Assembly: GCA_964648435.1 (NCBI GenBank) | Contig: CAZYLA010000001.1 | Location: 1-39,995, forward strand | Direction of reading: 5' to 3' | DNA length: 39,995 bases | Source: an uncultured Candidatus Saccharibacteria bacterium | Lineage (GTDB): Bacteria; Patescibacteriota; Andersenbacteria; CAZYLA01 | Part shown: piece after piece, positions 9,935 through 37,838 of the stretch | Position numbering within the stretch: position 1 is the first letter of the stretch | How the letters are laid out: each line of letters begins with the position of its first letter | Position numbers and translations under genes: made by a program | The notes under the pieces: generated by a model | Database searches by the model: none | What the model was told of the DNA's origin: nothing | What the model saw: only the letters and a program-made list of their open reading frames with translations

Positions 9935-10753
9935 ATGGACAGGCGTGTCTTAAAACAAATATTTGTCTTTTCTTTTTATTTTTCTATTTTTGTAATTATT
10001 ATTTTCGGCATTTGGTTTCTTTTTATTCGCGAGAGAGCGGTTGATGTTTGTGGGGATGGCATTTGCGGACCGAGTGAGTCATTTTCAACTTGCCCAGCTG
10101 ATTGCCCAGCTCCTCAAATTTGGGAAAATCTGGAAACCCTGGAGACAATTATTATACCCACCAGAGAAAATATTTATGACACTGCTATTAAAATTAAAAA
10201 TCCAAATGGAGCCGGCGGGGTGAAAGATCTTGAATATAGAATTGAGTTTCTAGACGAGGGAGGCGGTGAGGTTGCTTTTCGCAAGGGCAAGACCTTTATT
10301 CTCCCTGGAGATGTAAAATATGTTTTTGAATTAAATGTTGAAAGCGCCATCCCCATTAAAGGAGCTCGTATTTCCTTTGGAGACATTTCTTGGCAAAAAC
10401 TAGAAAGGGGGATTTATCGCGAACCTGAAATTAAGATTAAAAACAAGATTTTTACGTTTGATGCTGAAAAGAACGAATACCGCTTGATTGGCCGGGTTGA
10501 AAATTCAAGCTCTTTTGACTTTAAAAAAGTCTTTATACAGGCACTTCTTTTGGATGGAAGCGGCAAAATCATTGGTTTAAATTCAACTGTTCAAGGAGCC
10601 CTTCTTAGTGGAGAAGAGAGGGAGTTTGAACTTCTTTGGCCTGGAGATGAGATAAAGGATGAAGTTAAAAGTCAAACAGTTAAGGCAGAAGTCAATGTTT
10701 TTGATTCAGAAACATTTATGCGTCGCTATGGGGAGGTACAACCACTCTATTAA
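9935..10753 (+). CDS. Hypothetical membrane-anchored extracytoplasmic protein with a Cys-rich CGDGICG...CPADCP motif
   Basis: ORF track starts at TTG 9896; the first ATG is at 9935. TM helix followed by CGDGICGPSESFSTCPADCP. Start is uncertain. Confidence 0.5.
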   Translation: MDRRVLKQIFVFSFYFSIFVIIIFGIWFLFIRERAVDVCGDGICGPSESFSTCPADCPAPQIWENLETLETIIIPTRENIYDTAIKIKNPNGAGGVKDLEYRIEFLDEGGGEVAFRKGKTFILPGDVKYVFELNVESAIPIKGARISFGDISWQKLERGIYREPEIKIKNKIFTFDAEKNEYRLIGRVENSSSFDFKKVFIQALLLDGSGKIIGLNSTVQGALLSGEEREFELLWPGDEIKDEVKSQTVKAEVNVFDSETFMRRYGEVQPLY

Positions 10754-10881
10754 TATTAATAAAAATTTATCTATATCAAAATCTCTAATTTCAAAAGCCG
10801 TATTATAAAATCCAAAATCCAAAATCCAAATTTCAAAAAAATAAATATTTTTTTGGATTTTGAGTTTTGAGCTTGATTTTA

Positions 10882-10956
10882 GGGGTGTCAGAAAACAGTC
10901 GAACTTCCCTACAGAAATCAAAAAAGAGTTCTTGCGTTGTAAAGGAACGAGTAGCT
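10882..10956 (+). repeat. Dispersed conserved ~75-nt upstream element, copy A
   Basis: 5' box GGGGTGTCAGAAAACAG and 3' box GGAACGAGTAGCT. Ends 66 nt before ATG 11023 and abuts a TTGACA-16-TATTTT promoter-like site (10962-10989). Confidence 0.7.
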
Positions 10957-11022
10957 GGATTTTGACATAAAGAGGAGCTTACTTATTTTTAAATAGCAAG
11001 TTTTTATATAGAGATATTTTCA

Positions 11023-12120
11023 ATGAGATTAACTAATCTTTTCAAGAATTACAACTGGCCTCTTTTTTTATCGGCTTTTTTTCTGGTGCTGTTTGGCATA
11101 ATGATGATTTACAGCACCACTTTTAATTTGAGAGCGCCTTTTTTAAAAAGTTTCACCTTTCGTCAGATTATCTTTGCCTTAATTGGCTTTGGAGTGATGT
11201 TAATTGTTAGTCAAGTTCATTACCGTGCTCTTTCTAATTATACCCTTCACTTATACCTTTTAATTTTGGTCCTTTTAATTTTAGTGATTATTTTTGGTCG
11301 GGTGACGCGAGGAGCTGTAAGCTGGCTCCGACTCGGGCCATTTAATATTGAACCTTCTGAAATTGCCAAATTAGTGATGATTATTGTTCTTGCAAAACAC
11401 TTTGCAAAAAGAATTAGTTTAGTTCTTGGATTTAAAGAAATTATTCTTTCGTTTATCTATATAGTCATCCCTGTATTTTTAGTAGCTATCCAGCCAGATT
11501 TTGGTTCAGCATTTATTATTTTTCTTATCTATTTGGGGATGCTTTTAATGGTTCGAGTTAGTAAGACCCAACTTCTTGTAACTTTTTCTGTTCTTCTTAT
11601 TGCAAGTATTCTTGTATGGTCGTTTGTTTTATTAGATTATCAAAAAGAACGACTTTTAAATTTTCTAAACCCTTTTAAAGAACCTCTTGGTACGGGATAT
11701 AGCACGATCCAGTCAATGATTGCAGTTGGTTCAGGAAATATTCTTGGTCAAGGGCTTGGGAGGGGCTTTCAGAGCCAACTTAATTTTTTACCAGAGAAAC
11801 ACACAGATTTTATTTTCGCAGCAATTGCCGAGGAGCTTGGACTTGTAGGAGCAAGTGTAATTATTATTCTTTTTGGAATTTTTCTTTTTAGTATTATTCG
11901 AGTTATCAGAAATTGCTCAGATAATTTTGGAAAATTAATCGGTGTTGGCAGTATAATAATGGTTTTATCCCAAGCCCTGATTTATATTGGCATGAATACA
12001 GGGATTATGCCGGTAACTGGGATTCCATTACCCTTTGTCAGTTATGGCGGAAGCAGCTTAGTTGTTAATTTACTGCTTGTAGGTATTTTGCAAAGTATTT
12101 GGGTGAGGAATAGACTATAA
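11023..12120 (+). CDS. FtsW/RodA/SpoVE-family peptidoglycan glycosyltransferase
   Basis: 365 aa, polytopic. Conserved stretches LQPSE-like (FNIEPSEIAKL), QPDFGSA, PEKHTDFIFA and PLPFVSYGGSS. Confidence 0.9.
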   Translation: MRLTNLFKNYNWPLFLSAFFLVLFGIMMIYSTTFNLRAPFLKSFTFRQIIFALIGFGVMLIVSQVHYRALSNYTLHLYLLILVLLILVIIFGRVTRGAVSWLRLGPFNIEPSEIAKLVMIIVLAKHFAKRISLVLGFKEIILSFIYIVIPVFLVAIQPDFGSAFIIFLIYLGMLLMVRVSKTQLLVTFSVLLIASILVWSFVLLDYQKERLLNFLNPFKEPLGTGYSTIQSMIAVGSGNILGQGLGRGFQSQLNFLPEKHTDFIFAAIAEELGLVGASVIIILFGIFLFSIIRVIRNCSDNFGKLIGVGSIIMVLSQALIYIGMNTGIMPVTGIPLPFVSYGGSSLVVNLLLVGILQSIWVRNRL

Positions 12121-12144
12121 TAAAATTGAAAATCAAAATCAAGG

Positions 12145-12163
12145 TATCGCGCTTCGCGCGATA
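12145..12163. terminator. GC hairpin after the FtsW/RodA-family gene, embedded in A/T heptad arms
   Basis: TATCGCGC-TTC-GCGCGATA, flanked by AAAATCAAAATCAA upstream and TTTGATTTTTG downstream. Confidence 0.5.
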
Positions 12164-12208
12164 ATTATAAAAAATCTTTGATTTTTGCTATTTGATATTA
12201 TTTCTTGG

Positions 12209-12237
12209 TTGACTTTTTCTTCGCCTTGGGTTATAAT
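12209..12237 (+). promoter_or_regulatory. Consensus sigma-70-type promoter
   Basis: TTGACT, 17-nt spacer, TATAAT; 35 nt upstream of ATG 12273. Confidence 0.65.
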
Positions 12238-12272
12238 AATAGTATAGGAGAATTAGAATAAAAATTTTTATT

Positions 12273-12623
12273 ATGCCAAATCATTCGTCAAAATTTCCCT
12301 TAGATAGAGATGAAAAAATGCAATTTGTCTTGAAATGCCCGTTTTGCAATACTTCTTATCGGGCAGAAAGCGCAGAGATTATTGATGAAGAAGACGACTC
12401 TCTGCTTGTGTATTTAAGTTGCCCTAAATGTTTGAGCTCAATTATTGCGGTGGTTAATATTGGCAGTATGGGCGTAACTTCCCTTGGTCTTGTTACTGAT
12501 ATGACTAAGGATGATATTATTCGTTTTAAAAGAGGCAAGAAAGTTTCTGGAAACGACATTTTAAATATTTACGAGACCCTTCACAAAAAAGAAGGTAATT
12601 TCATAAAGGAGATTACGAGGTAG
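12273..12623 (+). CDS. Hypothetical zinc-ribbon protein
   Basis: CPFC...CPKC cysteine pairs, with a consensus promoter upstream. No recognised family. Confidence 0.5.
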   Translation: MPNHSSKFPLDRDEKMQFVLKCPFCNTSYRAESAEIIDEEDDSLLVYLSCPKCLSSIIAVVNIGSMGVTSLGLVTDMTKDDIIRFKRGKKVSGNDILNIYETLHKKEGNFIKEITR

Positions 12624-12790
12624 AGGCATATTTGTTCAAATATAAACTCCTGTTTTATTAATAACTTCCTTTTCGCTAGTGGGGATACGTTCATAGAAAA
12701 TAGAAAATAGTTATATAGAAAATAGAAATTGGTATAGAAATTAGAGAATAGAAAATAGAAAAGCGGAGCGAAGCTCCACTTAAAACCGTC

Positions 12791-12860
12791 GGGGACGTCA
12801 GAAAATAGATGATTTATAATTAAAGGGGAAGAACCTTACTTGGCAGAGGAACGAGTAGCT
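12791..12860 (+). repeat. Dispersed conserved upstream element, copy B
   Basis: GGGGACGTCAGAAAATAG ... GGAACGAGTAGCT. Ends 70 nt before ATG 12931. A partial extra copy of the 5' box (GGGGATACGTTCATAGAAAATAG) lies at about 12681-12703. Confidence 0.7.
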
Positions 12861-12930
12861 CCATTTTCCATTTTCTATTACCATTTTCCAATTTCCATAT
12901 AACCAATTTCTAATTTCTTTAGAAATAATT

Positions 12931-13695
12931 ATGGCTGAAGAGTTAAAGCTTCGGGCAGAGAAGAGGCCTGAAGGCAAGAAAGCAAGCAAGATTCGGCGGG
13001 AAGACAAGATTCCCGCGATTTTATATGGGCGCAGGGTTAAAAATGTGCCTCTTCAAGTTGATTACAAGGATTTTGCTGATGTTTACGAGCGAGGCGGGGG
13101 AACTTCTTTGGTTTCATTGTGCTTAGGCAAAGGCGAAGAGCGCAAAGTTTTAATTCACGAAGTTCAAAAAGACCCGCTTTCGGGTAAATTTATTCACGCT
13201 GATTTTTATCAGGTGAAAATGACTGAGAAGTTAGTTGCCGAAGTGCCTCTTCGTTTCACCGGCAAATCAAAAGCCGTTAAAGATAAAGGCGGGATTTTAG
13301 TTAAAAACATTAGCGAAGTTGAAGTTGAGGCCTTGCCCCAAGATTTGCCCAAAGAAATTAAGGTTGATATTTCACCCCTTAAGGAGATTGATGATGTTAT
13401 TAAGATAAAAGATCTGAAAGTTTCTCCTAAGGTCGCGATTTTGGCGGATAAAGACGAAGTTGTTGCTGTGGTAACGCCGCCAAGAACAGAAGAAGAGCTG
13501 AAGGAGCTTGAGGAAAAACCTGAGGAAGCAGTGGAAGAAGTTGAAGGCATTAAAGAAGAAAAAGCCAAAGAAGGAAAAGAAGTCAAGGGCGCAGAAGAGG
13601 CAAAAGAAGGTGAAGAAGTTAAAGAAGGCGAAGAAAAGAAAGAAGCCGAAGCTGCTAAAGAAGGAAAGTCAGAAGAAGAGAAAGAAGGTAAATAG
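12931..13695 (+). CDS. rplY: Ribosomal protein L25/Ctc with a long Glu/Lys-rich C-terminal tail
   Basis: RREDKIPAILYG, VLIHEVQKDPLSGKFIHADF and VPLRFTGKSKAVK are typical of L25/Ctc. The tail is a low-complexity EEKAKEGKE repeat. Confidence 0.88.
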   Translation: MAEELKLRAEKRPEGKKASKIRREDKIPAILYGRRVKNVPLQVDYKDFADVYERGGGTSLVSLCLGKGEERKVLIHEVQKDPLSGKFIHADFYQVKMTEKLVAEVPLRFTGKSKAVKDKGGILVKNISEVEVEALPQDLPKEIKVDISPLKEIDDVIKIKDLKVSPKVAILADKDEVVAVVTPPRTEEELKELEEKPEEAVEEVEGIKEEKAKEGKEVKGAEEAKEGEEVKEGEEKKEAEAAKEGKSEEEKEGK

Positions 13696-13715
13696 AGTAT
13701 ATCGTAAATCGTTAC

Positions 13716-13761
13716 TATAGCGCCAAAAATCCGCCCCTGAAGGCGGATTTTTGGCGCTATA
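13716..13761. terminator. 20-bp hairpin terminator after rplY
   Basis: TATAGCGCCAAAAATCCGCC / GGCGGATTTTTGGCGCTATA with a 6-nt loop. It shares the core CCAAAAATCCGCC...GGCGGATTTTTGG with the hairpin at 21231-21277. Confidence 0.65.
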
Positions 13762-13836
13762 AAGGTTCCTTTCTGTTTTCCTCTTGACGAAATTACTACA
13801 TGTTAAGATAAATTTGTTACGGAAACGCAATGAAAT

Positions 13837-13971
13837 GTGTATTTTGCTAAAGTACTTCTCAGAGTTCTTGATAAAATGGTTGTGCCGGAAAAGGAACGTG
13901 CCAAAATCGCTAATAAACTTAGAACCTTAAAAGGAAAATTCAACGCTTTCCCGCAAACGCAATTTGACTGA
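13837..13971 (+). CDS. Candidate small ORF (44 aa from GTG, or 31 aa from ATG 13876)
   Basis: VYFAKVLLRVLDKMVVPEKERAKIANKLRTLKGKFNAFPQTQFD. A weak hairpin plus T-run follows (CCCGC-N6-GCGGG, 14008-14023, then GCGTTTTT). No recognisable family or clear SD. Confidence 0.2.
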   Translation: MYFAKVLLRVLDKMVVPEKERAKIANKLRTLKGKFNAFPQTQFD

Positions 13972-14064
13972 GTAATCCAGTTCTTGTCTTGAAGTTTCCG
14001 TTTTTGTCCCGCAATTTAGCGGGGCGTTTTTATTGCCCTGACCCCGAGCGCTAGCGAAAAAACA

Positions 14065-14097
14065 AAGACAGGCGGAGGACAGTCCTCCGCCTGTCTT
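14065..14097. terminator. Hairpin terminator after prmC
   Basis: AAAGACAGGCGGAGGA-CAG-TCCTCCGCCTGTCTTT. The core GCGGAGGACAGTCCTCCGC recurs at 37733-37757. Confidence 0.65.
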
Positions 14098-14109
14098 TAA
14101 AAAAGAGCT

Positions 14110-15009
14110 CTATTTTTGTTTTAAATGTAATATTCTTATTTTGCCGGACAAATCTTTTTTAAGTTCTGCTTTCATTTTTGGCAGGTTTTTCTTTGCCTCT
14201 AGAATTAACTCCAGAGATTGTTCAGGAGATGTCTCCAAGAAAATCTCACCGTTGGGTTTGAGGTATTTTGGTGCGGCCCTGAGGAGTTTTTTAATATAGA
14301 AAGATCCGTTTCTGCCGCCAAAAAGCGCTTTTCTGGGTTCAAACTTTAAATTTTTAAAATATTTCTGATAATCTTTATCGGAAATATAAGGAAGATTGGC
14401 GATTATTACATCGACTTTTTCTGATAGACAAGATAGAAGATTGCCTTTTAAAAATTTTATCCCGCACCTTTTTGCCGCTTTACGGCAAAAAGGTGCGGGG
14501 TTTATTCTTTTTGAGACGTGGTGGCGTCTGGCATTTGCGTGGGCGACTTTAAGAGCACTTTGAGAAATATCAGTTGCATAAATTTTGGCAGTTGGAAGCT
14601 TTTTGGCGATAGTGATGGCAATACAGCCGCACCCTGTGCCGATGTCTGCAATTTTAAGATTTTTCTTTTTAGCAATTTTAGATTTTAAAAAATATTCTAC
14701 AAGTTCTTCGGTTTCTGGTCTGGGAATTAAAACATTTTGATTAATTTTAAACCCAAGGCCGAAAAATTCTTTTTTTCCTAAAATATAAGCAAGGGGGAAT
14801 CTGGTAAGCCGTTTTTTAACAAGATGCTTAAATTTATTTTCAGTATTTTTGGAAATCTTTTTTTCTAAATTCTGAAAAAGATACTCTTTTGGCTTTTTAA
14901 TGGTATGGCACAAAAGAAGCTCGCTTTCTATTCGAGCTTCTTTGCTTATTTTTTGAAGTTTTTGTTCTCCTTTTTGGAGGAGACATTTGATATTTTTAGG
15001 CGATTTCAT
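14110..15009 (-). CDS. prmC: Release-factor glutamine N5-methyltransferase (HemK/PrmC)
   Basis: IPRPETE, DIGTGCGCIAI, IIANLPYI (NPPY variant). The true start is most likely MKSPKNIK (ATG at 15009); the longer track ORF runs into repeat copy C. Confidence 0.88.
   Translation of the reverse strand: MKSPKNIKCLLQKGEQKLQKISKEARIESELLLCHTIKKPKEYLFQNLEKKISKNTENKFKHLVKKRLTRFPLAYILGKKEFFGLGFKINQNVLIPRPETEELVEYFLKSKIAKKKNLKIADIGTGCGCIAITIAKKLPTAKIYATDISQSALKVAHANARRHHVSKRINPAPFCRKAAKRCGIKFLKGNLLSCLSEKVDVIIANLPYISDKDYQKYFKNLKFEPRKALFGGRNGSFYIKKLLRAAPKYLKPNGEIFLETSPEQSLELILEAKKNLPKMKAELKKDLSGKIRILHLKQK
14461..14499. repeat. 39-nt palindromic element inserted in-frame in prmC
   Basis: CCCGCACCTTTTTGCCG-CTTTA-CGGCAAAAAGGTGCGGG (17-bp arms). 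It equals exactly 13 codons (PAPFCRKAAKRCG) starting on a codon boundary. Confidence 0.8.
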
Positions 15010-15063
15010 AATCGGGGTGACAAAAAAGAAAATAGTTTTATAGAAAATCGAAATTCGTAATGG

Positions 15064-15139
15064 AGCTACTCGTTCCATAGAGACGTTAAGATTCATCCAT
15101 GATTTCCGTAGGAAAGCTTATCTATCTTCTGATATCCCC
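15064..15139 (-). repeat. Dispersed conserved upstream element, copy C
   Basis: Minus strand reads GGGGATATCAGAAGATAG ... GGAACGAGTAGCT. Ends 54 nt before the prmC ATG (15009). Confidence 0.7.
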
Positions 15140-15226
15140 AAGTCGAAACTCGAAACGAGTTTCGACTTTCCATTTTCGATAACGATTTTCCAGTTTTGAC
15201 ACAACGAATTTCTAACTTTAAGCAGT

Positions 15227-16267
15227 TTAGAATTTAGTGTTTTTTAAACTGCTTACTATTGGTTCAATATTCCCTGCCAAAATTCCTTCAAGATTGTGCC
15301 AGCTTTTTTTAATCCGGTGGTCAGTAAGCCGGTCCTGGGGAAAGTTGTAAGTCCGCACTTTTTCAGCGCGTTTAGCTGCGCCAATTTGGGTTCGTCTTTC
15401 TTTACCGCGTTTTTCGGCTTCTTGTTCTTGCATAATTTGATAAAGCCGGGAGCGCAGGATTTTAAGTGCTTTTTCTTTATTTCTACTTTGTGATTTTTCA
15501 TCTTGGCAGGAAACAGTAATTTTTGTTGGGAGATGGGTAACTCTGACCGCTGTTTCCACTTTGTTAACATGTTGGCCCCCAGGGCCACCAGCCCGAAAAA
15601 CTTCGACTTTCAGGTCCTCCTCCTTAATTTCAAAGTCAATTTTCTCAACTTGAGGCAAAACCGCTACTGTTGCTGTTGAAGTATGAATCCGTCCGCCTTT
15701 TTCTGTTTTTGGAATTCGTTGAACTCGGTGGACTCCGCTTTCTTGCATGAGAGTTTTATAGGCGTTTGGACCATTGATTTCAAAAATTATTTCCTTGAAG
15801 CCACCGATAGAAGTTCGGTTTGAATTTAAAATTTTAACGCTCCAGTTCTGATTCTCTGCAAATTTTGAGTACATCTTAAAAAGGTCCGCTGCAAAGAGAG
15901 CCGCTTCTTCGCCGCCAGTGCCAGCTCTAATTTCCATAATTAGATTGTCTGGAATTTTTTCTTTTCCTTCTTCCAAGAGTTTTTTAATTTCTTTTTCTAT
16001 TTTTTTCTTCTGGGAAGTTAGAGAGCTTACTTCTTCTTGGGCAAGAACACTAAGTTCACCCTTTTCAGTGTCGAGCATGTCCTGAGCTTCTCCTAAATTT
16101 TTTTCTATGCTTTCAAGTTCAATAATCTTTTCAGCAACCTCTTTAATTTCTCCGTATTTTGCAGCAAGACGAGCGGATTTTTTTCGGTCTTTAAAAATAT
16201 CTGGCTCTGCCAATTCTTTTTTTAGTTTTTCATACTCTTCTTTAATTTTAACAAGTTTTTTATCCAT
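15227..16267 (-). CDS. prfA: Peptide chain release factor 1
   Basis: PXT-type region RIPKTEKGGRIHTS, GGQ motif (RAGGPGGQHVNK). Start most likely MDKKLVKIKE (ATG at 16267). Confidence 0.93.
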   Translation of the reverse strand: MDKKLVKIKEEYEKLKKELAEPDIFKDRKKSARLAAKYGEIKEVAEKIIELESIEKNLGEAQDMLDTEKGELSVLAQEEVSSLTSQKKKIEKEIKKLLEEGKEKIPDNLIMEIRAGTGGEEAALFAADLFKMYSKFAENQNWSVKILNSNRTSIGGFKEIIFEINGPNAYKTLMQESGVHRVQRIPKTEKGGRIHTSTATVAVLPQVEKIDFEIKEEDLKVEVFRAGGPGGQHVNKVETAVRVTHLPTKITVSCQDEKSQSRNKEKALKILRSRLYQIMQEQEAEKRGKERRTQIGAAKRAEKVRTYNFPQDRLTDHRIKKSWHNLEGILAGNIEPIVSSLKNTKF

Positions 16268-28624: not shown

Positions 28625-28717
28625 ATTTAATGCAAAATGCAAAATGCAAAGATCAAAATGTAATTCAAAATGCAAAAAGAATTACATCTTTAATTTTTAT
28701 TTCTTTTTGAATTTTGA

Positions 28718-28837
28718 CCCCGAACCAATCCTTCACTTCGTTCAGAATGGTACGGGGCGAGCGGTAGATGAAAGTGCTTTCTTAATTTAGCATACTCGCC
28801 CCGTAGTTAACGAACGAAGTGAGTTATACTACTGGGG
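28718..28837. repeat. 120-nt three-tier imperfect hairpin between the EamA and GH genes
   Basis: CCCC/GGGG (28718-21 / 28834-37), TCACTTCGTTC/GAACGAAGTGA (28733-43 / 28812-22), TACGGGGCGAG/CTCGCCCCGTA (28751-61 / 28795-805). Flanked by (AAAATGC)n arms and the complementary T-rich arms. Confidence 0.8.
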
Positions 28838-28879
28838 TTTGTCATTTTGCATTTTGATTTTTGATTTTTGAATTTCTAT

Positions 28880-29887
28880 ATGGTTGGTAAAAAAATCCTA
28901 AAAACATTATTTATAATTGTTATTCTAGTTGTTATTGTTATTGGCGGCTTTTCTCTTTATTATGGCTTAAAGCCCGCGCCACTCCCAGAAGAAATGGAGT
29001 GGGGGGTTACTTTTGCGCCAAAATACTGCCGCGAGCTTGGTCTTCAAAATTGGCAGGAAGTTTATTTGGCAGCGCTTGACGAGCTTGGATTTCGAAAGTT
29101 CCGTCTCATTGCCTATTGGGACGAAATTGAAAAAGAAGAGGGTAAATTAGATTTTTCCGAACTTGATTTTCAAATTAAGGAAGCAGAGAAACGCAACGCC
29201 ACGATTATCTTAGCTGTTGGTCGTAAGCTTCCCCGCTGGCCAGAGTGCTTTGTGCCTGCTTGGATGGCGCACTATCCAGAGAAAGAAGTTCAAAGAAGAT
29301 TTTTAGGATTTTTGCCAAAAGTAATTGAGCGCTACAAAAACCATGAGAGCATTGCCTTTTGGCAAATCGAAAATGAATTTTTCTTTAAATATTTTGGGGA
29401 GTGCCCTTTGCCGAATGAGCGCTTTTTAGAACAAGAAATTGAGATTGTTCGCAGCATTGACCCTTCAAGAAAGATTATTTTAACAGATAGTGGCGAACTT
29501 TCTTCTTGGGTCCCAACAGCCAGGCGGGCGGATATTTTAGGAACGAGTTTGTATAAGACGGTTTGGAATAAATACACGGGCTATGTTCATTATAAAATCC
29601 CGGCAACTTTTTATCGTTTAAAGACCGTGTTTATTAAACTCTGGGTCGAAGATGTTTTTGTTTCTGAAATGCAGGCAGAGCCTTGGGGACCAAAGGTTAC
29701 TTACGAGATTTCCATTGAAGAGCAGAAAAAATCGATGAATCCCGAAGCGCTTCGCGAGATTGTTGATTTTACGCGGCGCTCTGGCTTTAAAAATGTCTAT
29801 ATGTGGGGCATTGAATGGTGGTACTGGCTGAAAGAACAGGGAGATGATTCGATGTGGGAAACCGTGAAAGAGATAACAAATCCCTAG
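28880..29887 (+). CDS. Membrane-anchored clan GH-A (TIM-barrel) glycoside hydrolase-like protein
   Basis: N-terminal TM helix. WQIENEF (NE acid/base-type motif) and a later SEMQAEPWG. Family assignment is uncertain. Start taken at ATG 28880. Confidence 0.5.
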   Translation: MVGKKILKTLFIIVILVVIVIGGFSLYYGLKPAPLPEEMEWGVTFAPKYCRELGLQNWQEVYLAALDELGFRKFRLIAYWDEIEKEEGKLDFSELDFQIKEAEKRNATIILAVGRKLPRWPECFVPAWMAHYPEKEVQRRFLGFLPKVIERYKNHESIAFWQIENEFFFKYFGECPLPNERFLEQEIEIVRSIDPSRKIILTDSGELSSWVPTARRADILGTSLYKTVWNKYTGYVHYKIPATFYRLKTVFIKLWVEDVFVSEMQAEPWGPKVTYEISIEEQKKSMNPEALREIVDFTRRSGFKNVYMWGIEWWYWLKEQGDDSMWETVKEITNP

Positions 29888-37559: not shown

Positions 37560-37838
37560 TTTTGCGTAGAGTATTCTTAGTCAAATGGCACAAGCTTTAA
37601 TGTTTTTTTGTGCTCTTTTCCCTTACTCCGTAATATAACTGCCATAGCAGTTATATTACGGGGATTACCAAAGAACAGTTTTTTTGGTAATTACTGTTTT
37701 TTTTTATTTCTCTAATTCGCGCAAATAGTAGAATAGCGGAGGACAGTCCTCCGCTATTTTTACAATTTTCAGGTAGGATATTCTCTACCTTTTCTGTCGT
37801 CTCCAAAACGTCCCTATTTCTCCTAGGGAAAAATTCAA

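Follow-up and report, generated by a model that had tools for sequence, protein, structure and literature searches.

An 80-bp conserved stretch dispersed in the intergenic gaps of a Candidatus Saccharibacteria genome is probably a non-autonomous insertion element that lands in heptad foldbacks

The first 39,995 nucleotides of contig CAZYLA010000001.1 (assembly GCA_964648435.1, from an uncultured Candidatus Saccharibacteria bacterium placed by GTDB in the Andersenbacteria), hereafter the window, contain three copies, called A, B and C, of a conserved stretch that we refer to as the core, each of which points towards a start codon. The question raised by this locus is whether the core is a regulatory module of the downstream genes, a leader RNA or a mobile repeat. 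A sequence-only reading of the window had left these three options side by side, the first as a protein-binding or UP-like site and the last as a small mobile repeat carrying an outward signal. We argue that the core is probably a lineage-specific, non-coding and non-autonomous insertion element, which has asymmetric conserved ends and lands in the T-runs of foldbacks made of 7-base repeats (heptads).

The three copies, their boxes, their positions and their distances to the genes were all confirmed when the regions were read again. The 3' box, GGAACGAGTAGCT, has exactly three perfect matches in the window, at 10944-10956 (+), 12848-12860 (+) and 15076-15064 (-), while only 0.44 matches are expected by chance even if two mismatches are allowed, and three matches were reached in none of 100 shuffles. 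The 5' boxes are GGGGTGTCAGAAAACAG from 10882 in copy A, GGGGACGTCAGAAAATAG from 12791 in copy B and GGGGATATCAGAAGATAG from 15139 (-) in copy C. A middle box is common to copies A and C and is absent from copy B, as had been noted. The core ends 66 nt (A, RodA/FtsW-family gene), 70 nt (B, rplY) and 54 nt (C, prmC) before the start codon.

The window is contig C1 of an 820,660-bp assembly (89 contigs, 38% GC, 96% complete), and the other C-numbers used below denote contigs of the same assembly. The copies were counted with an nhmmer profile (E<=1e-3) and with a sequence-only covariance model (CM) built from the core alignment. Far beyond the three copies of the window, the genome-wide count amounts to 68-79: nhmmer gives 68 matches, which are spread over 46 of the 89 contigs and comprise 52 full-length copies, 13 truncated at a contig end and 5 internal partials, and the CM gives 72-79. 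The element has spread to about 70 intergenic sites of one Patescibacteria lineage, and 60 of the 490 intergenic gaps of at least 60 nt (~12%) contain a copy. The consensus is nTGGGGAYGTCAGAAAAYAG..GARCTTTCCTAYRGAAATCA(~25 variable nt)RGGAAACGAGTAGCY. The boxes are nearly invariant, while the median pairwise identity of the copies is 63%. Clustering at 85% identity gives 35 clusters, the largest of which, family 1, has 10 members including copy A. Four copies of the B type (copy B, C17:385, C81:1867 and C41:5326) have only the two terminal boxes in common, which is the pattern expected if the ends matter.

The mobile-repeat option is sharpened by the comparison of filled and empty sites. The family-1 copies sit in a long foldback of AAAATCC and GGATTTT heptads. 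Two sites of this family are empty, C7:1893-2030 and C18:4575-4710, and read ...GAGCTTGATT directly followed by TGGATTTTGA..., whereas nine filled copies read ...GAGCTTGATT, then TTAGGGG...GAGTAGC, then TGGATTTTGA.... The unit delimited by this comparison, T(A/G)GGGG...GAGTAGC(T), is 77-80 bp long and lies inside a T-run at a heptad boundary of the foldback, and the junction is identical across all family-1 copies. A second pair consists of C61:2888-2948, which is empty (...CCATTTT followed by CCATATAAC...), and a filled site of C12 (...CCTTTTT, then AGGGG...GTAGCT, then TCCATATAAC...). The filled and empty junctions reveal no inverted termini and no target-site duplication on the insert, at most one T being ambiguous, and the 5' and 3' boxes are mutually unrelated in sequence. 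These sites show that the core is an inserted and dispensable unit. In family 1, minor-allele cells amount to 0.02-0.09 in the core versus 0.08-0.26 in the arms of the foldback; the core is less diverged than the arms, which fits the idea that near-identical cores entered older, diverged foldbacks at the same position.

Empty sites are also found in relatives of this organism. The closest relative detected by protein searches, L147, is a 3.35-kb Logan contig in which the gene order is kept (RodA, the upstream open reading frame (ORF) and RplY are 82%, 73% and 71% identical, respectively). The gap upstream of its RodA gene (172 nt) contains an AAATCC/GGATTT foldback and no core, and its ORF-rplY gap is only 12 nt long, versus 307 nt in the window, where it holds copy B and its arms. 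In another relative, L137 (PrfA 74% identical), a family-1-like foldback without a core occupies the prfA-prmC gap, where the window has copy C. These empty orthologous gaps imply that the relatives express the same genes without the element. Foldbacks devoid of a core are thus seen in L137, in L147 and in the genome of the window itself. The CM gave no true core match in 41 other genomes of the class, and no core was found in IMG/VR viral contigs or in phage records. A loose pattern, GAAATCA-N22-30-AACGAGTAGC, searched over species-representative genomes, returned 108 matches, all of which proved to be chance matches when they were rescored with the CM. With a specific pattern, 13 contigs were retrieved from the metagenomes of two related samples; L121, which was checked, is 99.99% identical to C42 and therefore comes from the same organism, so that it is not an independent occurrence.

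The three window copies are all aimed at a start codon 54-70 nt away, which supports a reading in which the core controls the downstream gene as an activator site, a promoter or a 5' leader. According to the earlier description, the core always lies upstream of a start codon and points in the same direction as the gene; this is true of the three window copies only. According to a simple ORF map of the genome (84% coding), 22 copies located between genes of the same strand are co-oriented with them and 13 are opposite, and further copies are directed at gene 3' ends or located between genes that diverge or converge. When the strand of the local gene majority is taken as the reference, the copies split 32:22 (p=0.22), and the distance from the core to the next gene ranges from 6 to more than 800 nt. 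The genome-wide check of orientation and distance, which had been fixed beforehand as the one that could refute the claim, thus gave the refuting outcome, an orientation close to random. Considering these splits and the widely varying distances, the co-orientation of the three window copies is a small-sample coincidence.

The mild genome-wide excess of co-oriented copies (22:13) speaks for control of the downstream gene, as does the promoter-like site that abuts copy A, TTGACA-16-TATTTT, which a consensus scan recovered at 10962..10989 (+) with 10 of 12 positions matching. However, this site belongs to the locus-specific flank, outside the repeated unit, and the family-1 alignment does not contain it in the other copies. 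Moreover, the 13 opposite copies are antisense to the genes around them, other copies point towards gene 3' ends, the distances vary widely, and the hairpin just upstream of copy C leaves no room for a promoter. The core is also missing from the orthologous gaps upstream of RodA and rplY in L147, and, as described below, it has neither structure nor covariation. The regulatory option is therefore unsupported, on account of the near-random orientation and the empty orthologous gaps, and the leader-RNA option fails, for want of a consensus structure or covariation and given the two gaps of the closest relative in which the core is missing. The control of downstream genes by the core is largely refuted, and we consider it very improbable. 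Regarding the third option, the mobile repeat stands, thanks to the filled and empty sites, but the outward signal is unsupported, the promoter-like site being part of the flank. For annotation, this means that three co-oriented "upstream elements" are not the signal of a regulon, and a tempting false lead is removed.

The core is not a folded RNA. The scan of the whole window against Rfam at gathering thresholds returned four tRNAs only, and at E<=10 no match over positions 10600-15400 overlaps any core. RNAalifold predicts 0 pairs from either 33 or 50 core sequences, on both strands. Mutual information with average product correction reveals a single local pair, in the variable region, and no other covarying Watson-Crick pairs; for all 28 pairs of core segments, the duplex energy is no better within a copy than between copies; and the folding energy of the whole core is that of shuffled sequences (z=0.02). 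No common structure could be derived by eye in the first place, and alignment folding, covariation and folding energy all agree with this. A GGGGA x CUUUCC helix, which is attractive by eye, forms equally well between non-cognate copies and was discarded. As written, the strand of the core is rich in purines, and what is conserved is its sequence rather than a structure. We also rejected a coding element, inasmuch as family 1 is open in one frame but inspection of the other subfamilies shows stops and indels.

It could be imagined that each core is the gene of a trans-acting small RNA, which would act by base pairing or by sequestering a protein. The 5' G-run would suit a transcription start, and the GGA-rich unstructured sequence recalls protein-sponge RNAs, although this is a resemblance only. 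On the contrary, no promoter or terminator is common to the copies, about 70 paralogues in 820 kb are implausible, the core is absent from the relatives, and no complementarity to a unique genomic site was found, every match of the 3' box belonging to an element. A small-RNA family is, in our opinion, extremely unlikely.

If the core is an insert, the next question is where it lands. The commonest junction, ...ATTT^T(G/C)(G/C)ATTTT, lies where two heptads meet in the T-rich arm of a foldback hairpin. In a set of 50 cores, a T-run (TTT) lies immediately 5' of the G-run in 27 copies (background 19%), and ATTT or ATTA is found 4-11 nt 3' of AGTAG in 24 copies (background 14%). The putative targeting rule, that the core lands in T-runs of heptad foldbacks, is supported by these observations; insertion would take place in one orientation, into a T-run of the T-rich arm. 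Since both strands of a foldback offer a T-rich arm, such orientation-specific entry predicts that the core occurs in either orientation relative to the genes and that head-to-head pairs are formed around a hairpin. Among the neighbours that are less than 100 nt apart, four pairs are head-to-head, one is tandem and none is tail-to-tail. One 294-bp head-to-head composite is present at C12:2277-2570 and at C12:13332-13624 (97.6% identical), and again on C77.

[quoted passage not shown] The inverted arms that close about 18 of the 50 copies argue in the same direction, and the genome has two ORFs with an rve domain (C9, C48) and a DDE_Tnp_1 pseudogene as potential enzymes. However, both this genome and relatives have foldbacks of the same family that contain no core, divergence is higher in the arms than in the cores, about 60% of the cores have no closing arms, and no target duplications are seen at the ends of the foldbacks. 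None of the candidate genes lies near a copy, and the rve-domain ORFs are not multi-copy. DDE enzymes would also leave duplications, of which none is seen. A MITE of this kind is therefore improbable. More generally, closing inverted arms are significant in a minority of copies only (~36%), and long hairpins are equally common in gaps that have no core; the arms are thus context and not part of the conserved unit. This proportion also led us to abandon the idea of the arms as a universal closing helix.

Two features of the foldbacks of the relatives are worth mentioning here. Long foldbacks with other heptad spellings (TACGAAT, AAATCC) are present at L137:351-700 and 1733-1893 and at L147:1333-1504. 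Some of the gaps that contain a foldback in the relatives have a length of only about 10 nt in the window (that between rpmE and prfA is one), so that foldbacks come and go between close relatives.

Returning to the insertion element that we favour, its ends, T(A/G)GGGGAYGTCAGAAAAYAG at the 5' side and RGGAAACGAGTAGCY at the 3' side, would be the boxes read by the mobilising machinery, and the enzyme would act in trans. The effects on neighbouring genes (read-through, termination, a fortuitous promoter) would be incidental. Which enzyme could be involved? The 96%-complete assembly has no match to the reverse transcriptase family PF00078, and a search of the genome found no TnpB gene, no IS110-type gene and no multi-copy ORF. 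It contains a single intact HUH/Y1 ORF, C6:899-1603, which scores 37.8 bits against Pfam Y1_Tnp (above the cut-off) and 37 bits against NCBIfam REP_Tyr_transpos (below the cut-off). Y1 enzymes move elements that have no inverted repeats, make no target duplications, and insert beside a short motif on single-stranded DNA (PMC6006769). This mode of insertion matches the anatomy of the core's junctions. The most likely mobiliser would therefore be this single HUH/Y1 (IS200/RAYT-like) transposase, acting on single-stranded DNA; the assignment is an uncertain one, which we put forward tentatively.

Another repeat family is found around this gene. It consists of a 19-nt perfect palindrome, GCGGAGGAC(A/T)GTCCTCCGC, with 15 copies genome-wide, among which are those at positions 14072-14090 and 37736-37754 of the window, at C6:866, 1086 and 1628, at C28:7897 and 7922, and on C3, C9, C20, C40 and C89. 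Three copies flank the Y1 gene or sit in frame inside it, and two lie inside a long reading frame of C28, according to a rough ORF map. It may be that this palindrome is the real partner of the Y1 enzyme.

Two other origins were considered and rejected. An A-run at the opposite-strand end of the element suggested a SINE-like origin (short interspersed nuclear element), for which the genome offers no reverse transcriptase. The GC-rich regions beside C39:4190 and at C6:1-404, regarded as candidates for a "master" RNA gene, share short similarity only and have no Rfam match. The latter region, at the start of its contig, is unannotated and has a GC content of about 60% in this 38% GC genome; its short similarity is to the middle box of the core (GGACTTACCTAACGGGAAATCATG), and it could be a truncated structured RNA gene.

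Several observations weigh against the insertion element or against its mobilisation by the Y1 enzyme. The flanking T-run is present in about 55% of the copies only, and about 45% lack it. It is the other palindrome, and not the core, that flanks the Y1 gene and interrupts it in frame, and 22 of 42 genomes of the class have homologues of this gene, whereas the core is found in this genome only. The core has no subterminal hairpins of the kind that IS200/IS605-type ends need: there is only a weak one, TTTCC-N3-GGAAA (z=-2.3, mean -0.9 kcal/mol), and the 3' region has no hairpin (z=-0.4). Relative to the local GC skew the copies split 28:22, which does not reveal a strand bias; this is a weak test, considering that the skew follows the coding strand (591 versus 131 genes) and that the assembly is fragmented. 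The relatives are known from contigs of 2-3 kb (3.35 kb for L147) with few gaps each, so that the absence of the core is an absence at orthologous sites. Last, near-invariant boxes in copies that are otherwise about 63% identical could also mean that each copy is selected for a function in the host.

This last point leads to the main alternative, in which a protein or RNA factor specific to this lineage, involved in RNA processing, nucleoid organisation or transcription, would use the core as a binding platform or as a kind of "punctuation"; the core would be selected at each site and its spread would be secondary. Besides the invariance of the boxes amid diverged copies, this alternative would account for the fact that the 3' box is the least changed part even in the young family 1 (2 of 117 cells), the purine-rich unstructured core would suit single-strand binding, and the occupancy of about 12% of the gaps speaks for it. 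But at two orthologous gaps the closest relative does without the core for the same genes, the orientation relative to genes is close to random, and no cognate factor was identified. Moreover, the variable region of family 1 changes no faster than the middle box (minor-allele rates of 0.048 and 0.052, respectively), which fits neutral decay after insertion. We consider a host function of this sort unlikely, and we keep the insertion element as the preferred interpretation.

How does such an element compare with known systems? IS1397 and ISKpn1 target the loops of REP/BIME, and IS1111/IS110-type elements target palindromes. The core shares with these insertion sequences the repeated entry at one position of a dispersed hairpin family; they are autonomous and protein-coding, whereas the core is non-coding and the genome has no IS110-type gene.

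The non-autonomous derivatives of IS200/IS605 and the repeats mobilised by Y1/HUH enzymes (IS608, ISDra2; "TIRtrons"; PMC6006769, PMC3733652) have, like the core, asymmetric ends without terminal inverted repeats (TIR) and no target duplication. They insert in a given orientation beside a short target motif, which would be the T-run in the case of the core, and a Y1/HUH gene is present in this genome. A GGGGWSAS motif has been reported at the flanks of TIRYT genes (PMC3733652); the 5' end of the core, GGGG(A/T)(C/G).., resembles it at 6 of 8 positions, which is a lead only. Unlike IS200/IS605, the core shows no convincing subterminal hairpins (those of IS200/IS605 are bound by TnpA) and no detectable strand bias, its ends do not bound the Y1 gene, and it is only about 80 bp long; membership of this group is not established.

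The REP, BIME and REPIN repeats, which occur with a single-copy RAYT transposase (PMC2817692, PMC3116915, PMC3479197, PMC5581495), resemble the core in forming high-copy intergenic mosaics with hairpins and head-to-head pairs. The core also has GTAG at one end, and the genome has a single-copy RAYT-like gene, although the REP_Tyr_transpos score is below the cut-off. However, a REP is an imperfect palindrome of 20-40 nt whose stem is preceded, at 0-2 nt on the 5' side, by a GT[AG]G tag (PMC6006769, PMC3733652), whereas the core is non-palindromic and, with 75-80 nt, 2-4 times longer, and the palindromes that flank the RAYT-like gene are of another family. The idea of a REP was not retained: in 20 of 50 copies a hairpin starts no more than 4 nt after AGTAG, which is not above chance (33% of random intergenic positions), and the combination of GTAG and a short hairpin, seen in six copies, is not general.

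MITE-like bacterial repeats are bounded by terminal inverted repeats and flanked by target duplications (TA in the case of Correia). The Correia/NEMIS elements of Neisseria, the pneumococcal BOX elements and RUP (reviewed in PMC10969869 and PMC3184786) are, like the core, small, abundant, intergenic and modular, with possible side effects on transcription; unlike them, the core has neither terminal inverted repeats nor target-site duplications. As for the arms alone, they are reminiscent of the cyanobacterial short tandemly repeated repetitive (STRR) sequences and of the dispersed heptamers of Xanthomonas and Nostoc (GGGAATC/GGGGAYT, PMC4692102) and of Beggiatoaceae (TAACTGA, PMC4679880), which are intergenic 7-nt arrays whose spelling varies with the locus and the lineage. 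In contrast with known heptamer repeats, the arrays described here form long foldbacks, which are the landing site of the core and not the conserved element itself.

Taken one step further, the core would belong to an undescribed kind of miniature mobile element, of about 80 bp, with two unrelated terminal boxes, no inverted or folded ends and no target duplication, which would home to T-runs in heptad foldbacks; its mobiliser, acting in trans, would be either a single-copy HUH/Y1 enzyme that has been domesticated or an unrecognised factor, and the element would be a second-order parasite of the hairpins that populate the gaps of Patescibacteria. We regard this extension as rather doubtful. 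If the Y1 enzyme were responsible, the range of substrates of RAYT/IS200-type enzymes would extend to ends that have no hairpins. Whatever the enzyme, about 70 sites of a streamlined 820-kb genome of the candidate phyla radiation are held by a selfish-looking insert, and the layering of this insert inside heptad foldbacks provides a concrete system of filled and empty sites in which one can ask how foldbacks and their guests move in a genome that has no ordinary multi-copy transposase. The element also has practical consequences for assembly, which it breaks: 13 contig ends lie inside copies, so that the element is one cause of the fragmentation.

The environment of each window copy can now be described. 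The locus-specific A/T heptad arms noticed at the outset are real, they differ from locus to locus, and their complementarity is significant for copies B and C. The core unit of copy A (TAGGGGTG...GAGTAGCT), which belongs to the young family 1, spans 10880..10956 (+); the CM matches it with E=8e-18, and its limits come from the comparison of filled and empty family-1 hairpins. According to the sequence and the family-1 alignment, it is preceded at 10800..10879 (+) by its host foldback, in which a left arm of the AAAATCC type and a loop are followed by the initial portion of a GGATTTT-type right arm ending in ...GAGCTTGATTT, and the rest of the right arm, GGATTTTGACAT, lies directly 3' of the insert (10957..10968, +). 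Downstream of this remainder copy A departs from the other family-1 copies. The same type of foldback is seen without a core at C18:4575-4710, at C7:1893-2030 and in the orthologous gap of L147.

Copy B is a divergent core with both terminal boxes and another interior, at 12790..12860 (+) (CM match 12790-12861, E=6e-6). It is preceded by a left (TAGAAAA)n heptad arm at 12692..12781 (+), which includes a small GC hairpin (12761-12781), and followed by a CCATTTT-type right arm at 12861..12925 (+), which is complementary to the left arm as judged from the fold and the arm score (57, z=13). Just upstream of the left arm, at 12680-12703, lies a solitary string that resembles the 5' box, GGGGATACGTTCATAGAAAATAG, and the TAGAAAA heptads of the arm itself echo AGAAAATAG of this box. 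This hints that some arms may have grown by slippage from a box.

Copy C occupies 15064..15140 (-), between prfA and prmC (CM match 15063-15140, E=4e-20). Upstream on its own strand, at 15140..15215 (-), are the hairpin GTCGAAACTCG/CGAGTTTCGAC and a left arm of the GAAAATCG type, identified from the sequence and the arm complementarity; the right arm (CCATTACGAATTTCGATTTTC...) is at 15030..15063 (-), and the arm score is 32 (z=6.7). The longest ORF of prmC (14110-15096) runs into copy C, and the likely start is the ATG at 15009; naive gene calls thus give PrmC a spurious N-terminal extension (window positions 15010-15096). The same kind of overlap with naive ORFs is seen for seven other copies.

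Other inserts and hairpins are found near cores or in similar arms. A GC-rich hairpin, CCCGCCCGCCATGCGAGCAAGGCGAGGCGGGCGGG, is present in the right arm just 3' of two family-1-type cores (C46:2806-2850 and C41:6875-6920), as a third layer of nesting, and strings that resemble it (GCCCGACGGGC) adjoin the C39 copy and lie at the start of C6. In the window itself, at 28640-28880, heptad arms of the AAAATGC/GCATTTT type surround a GC-rich insert of about 130 nt (CCCCGAACC...ACTGGGG), which is unrelated to the core and looks like another guest of a foldback. Last, six cores (on C30, C27, C3, C7, C50 and C22) are located directly 5' of a short palindrome, CTCACAA..TTGTGAG or CTCAGAGCGC..TGAG, and in three of the six, intact longer palindromes (AAACGGCTCACAA..TTGTGAGCCGTTT) lie about 50 nt upstream. 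In this subfamily, and not in general, the AAACGA of the 3' box pairs with a downstream TCGTTT.

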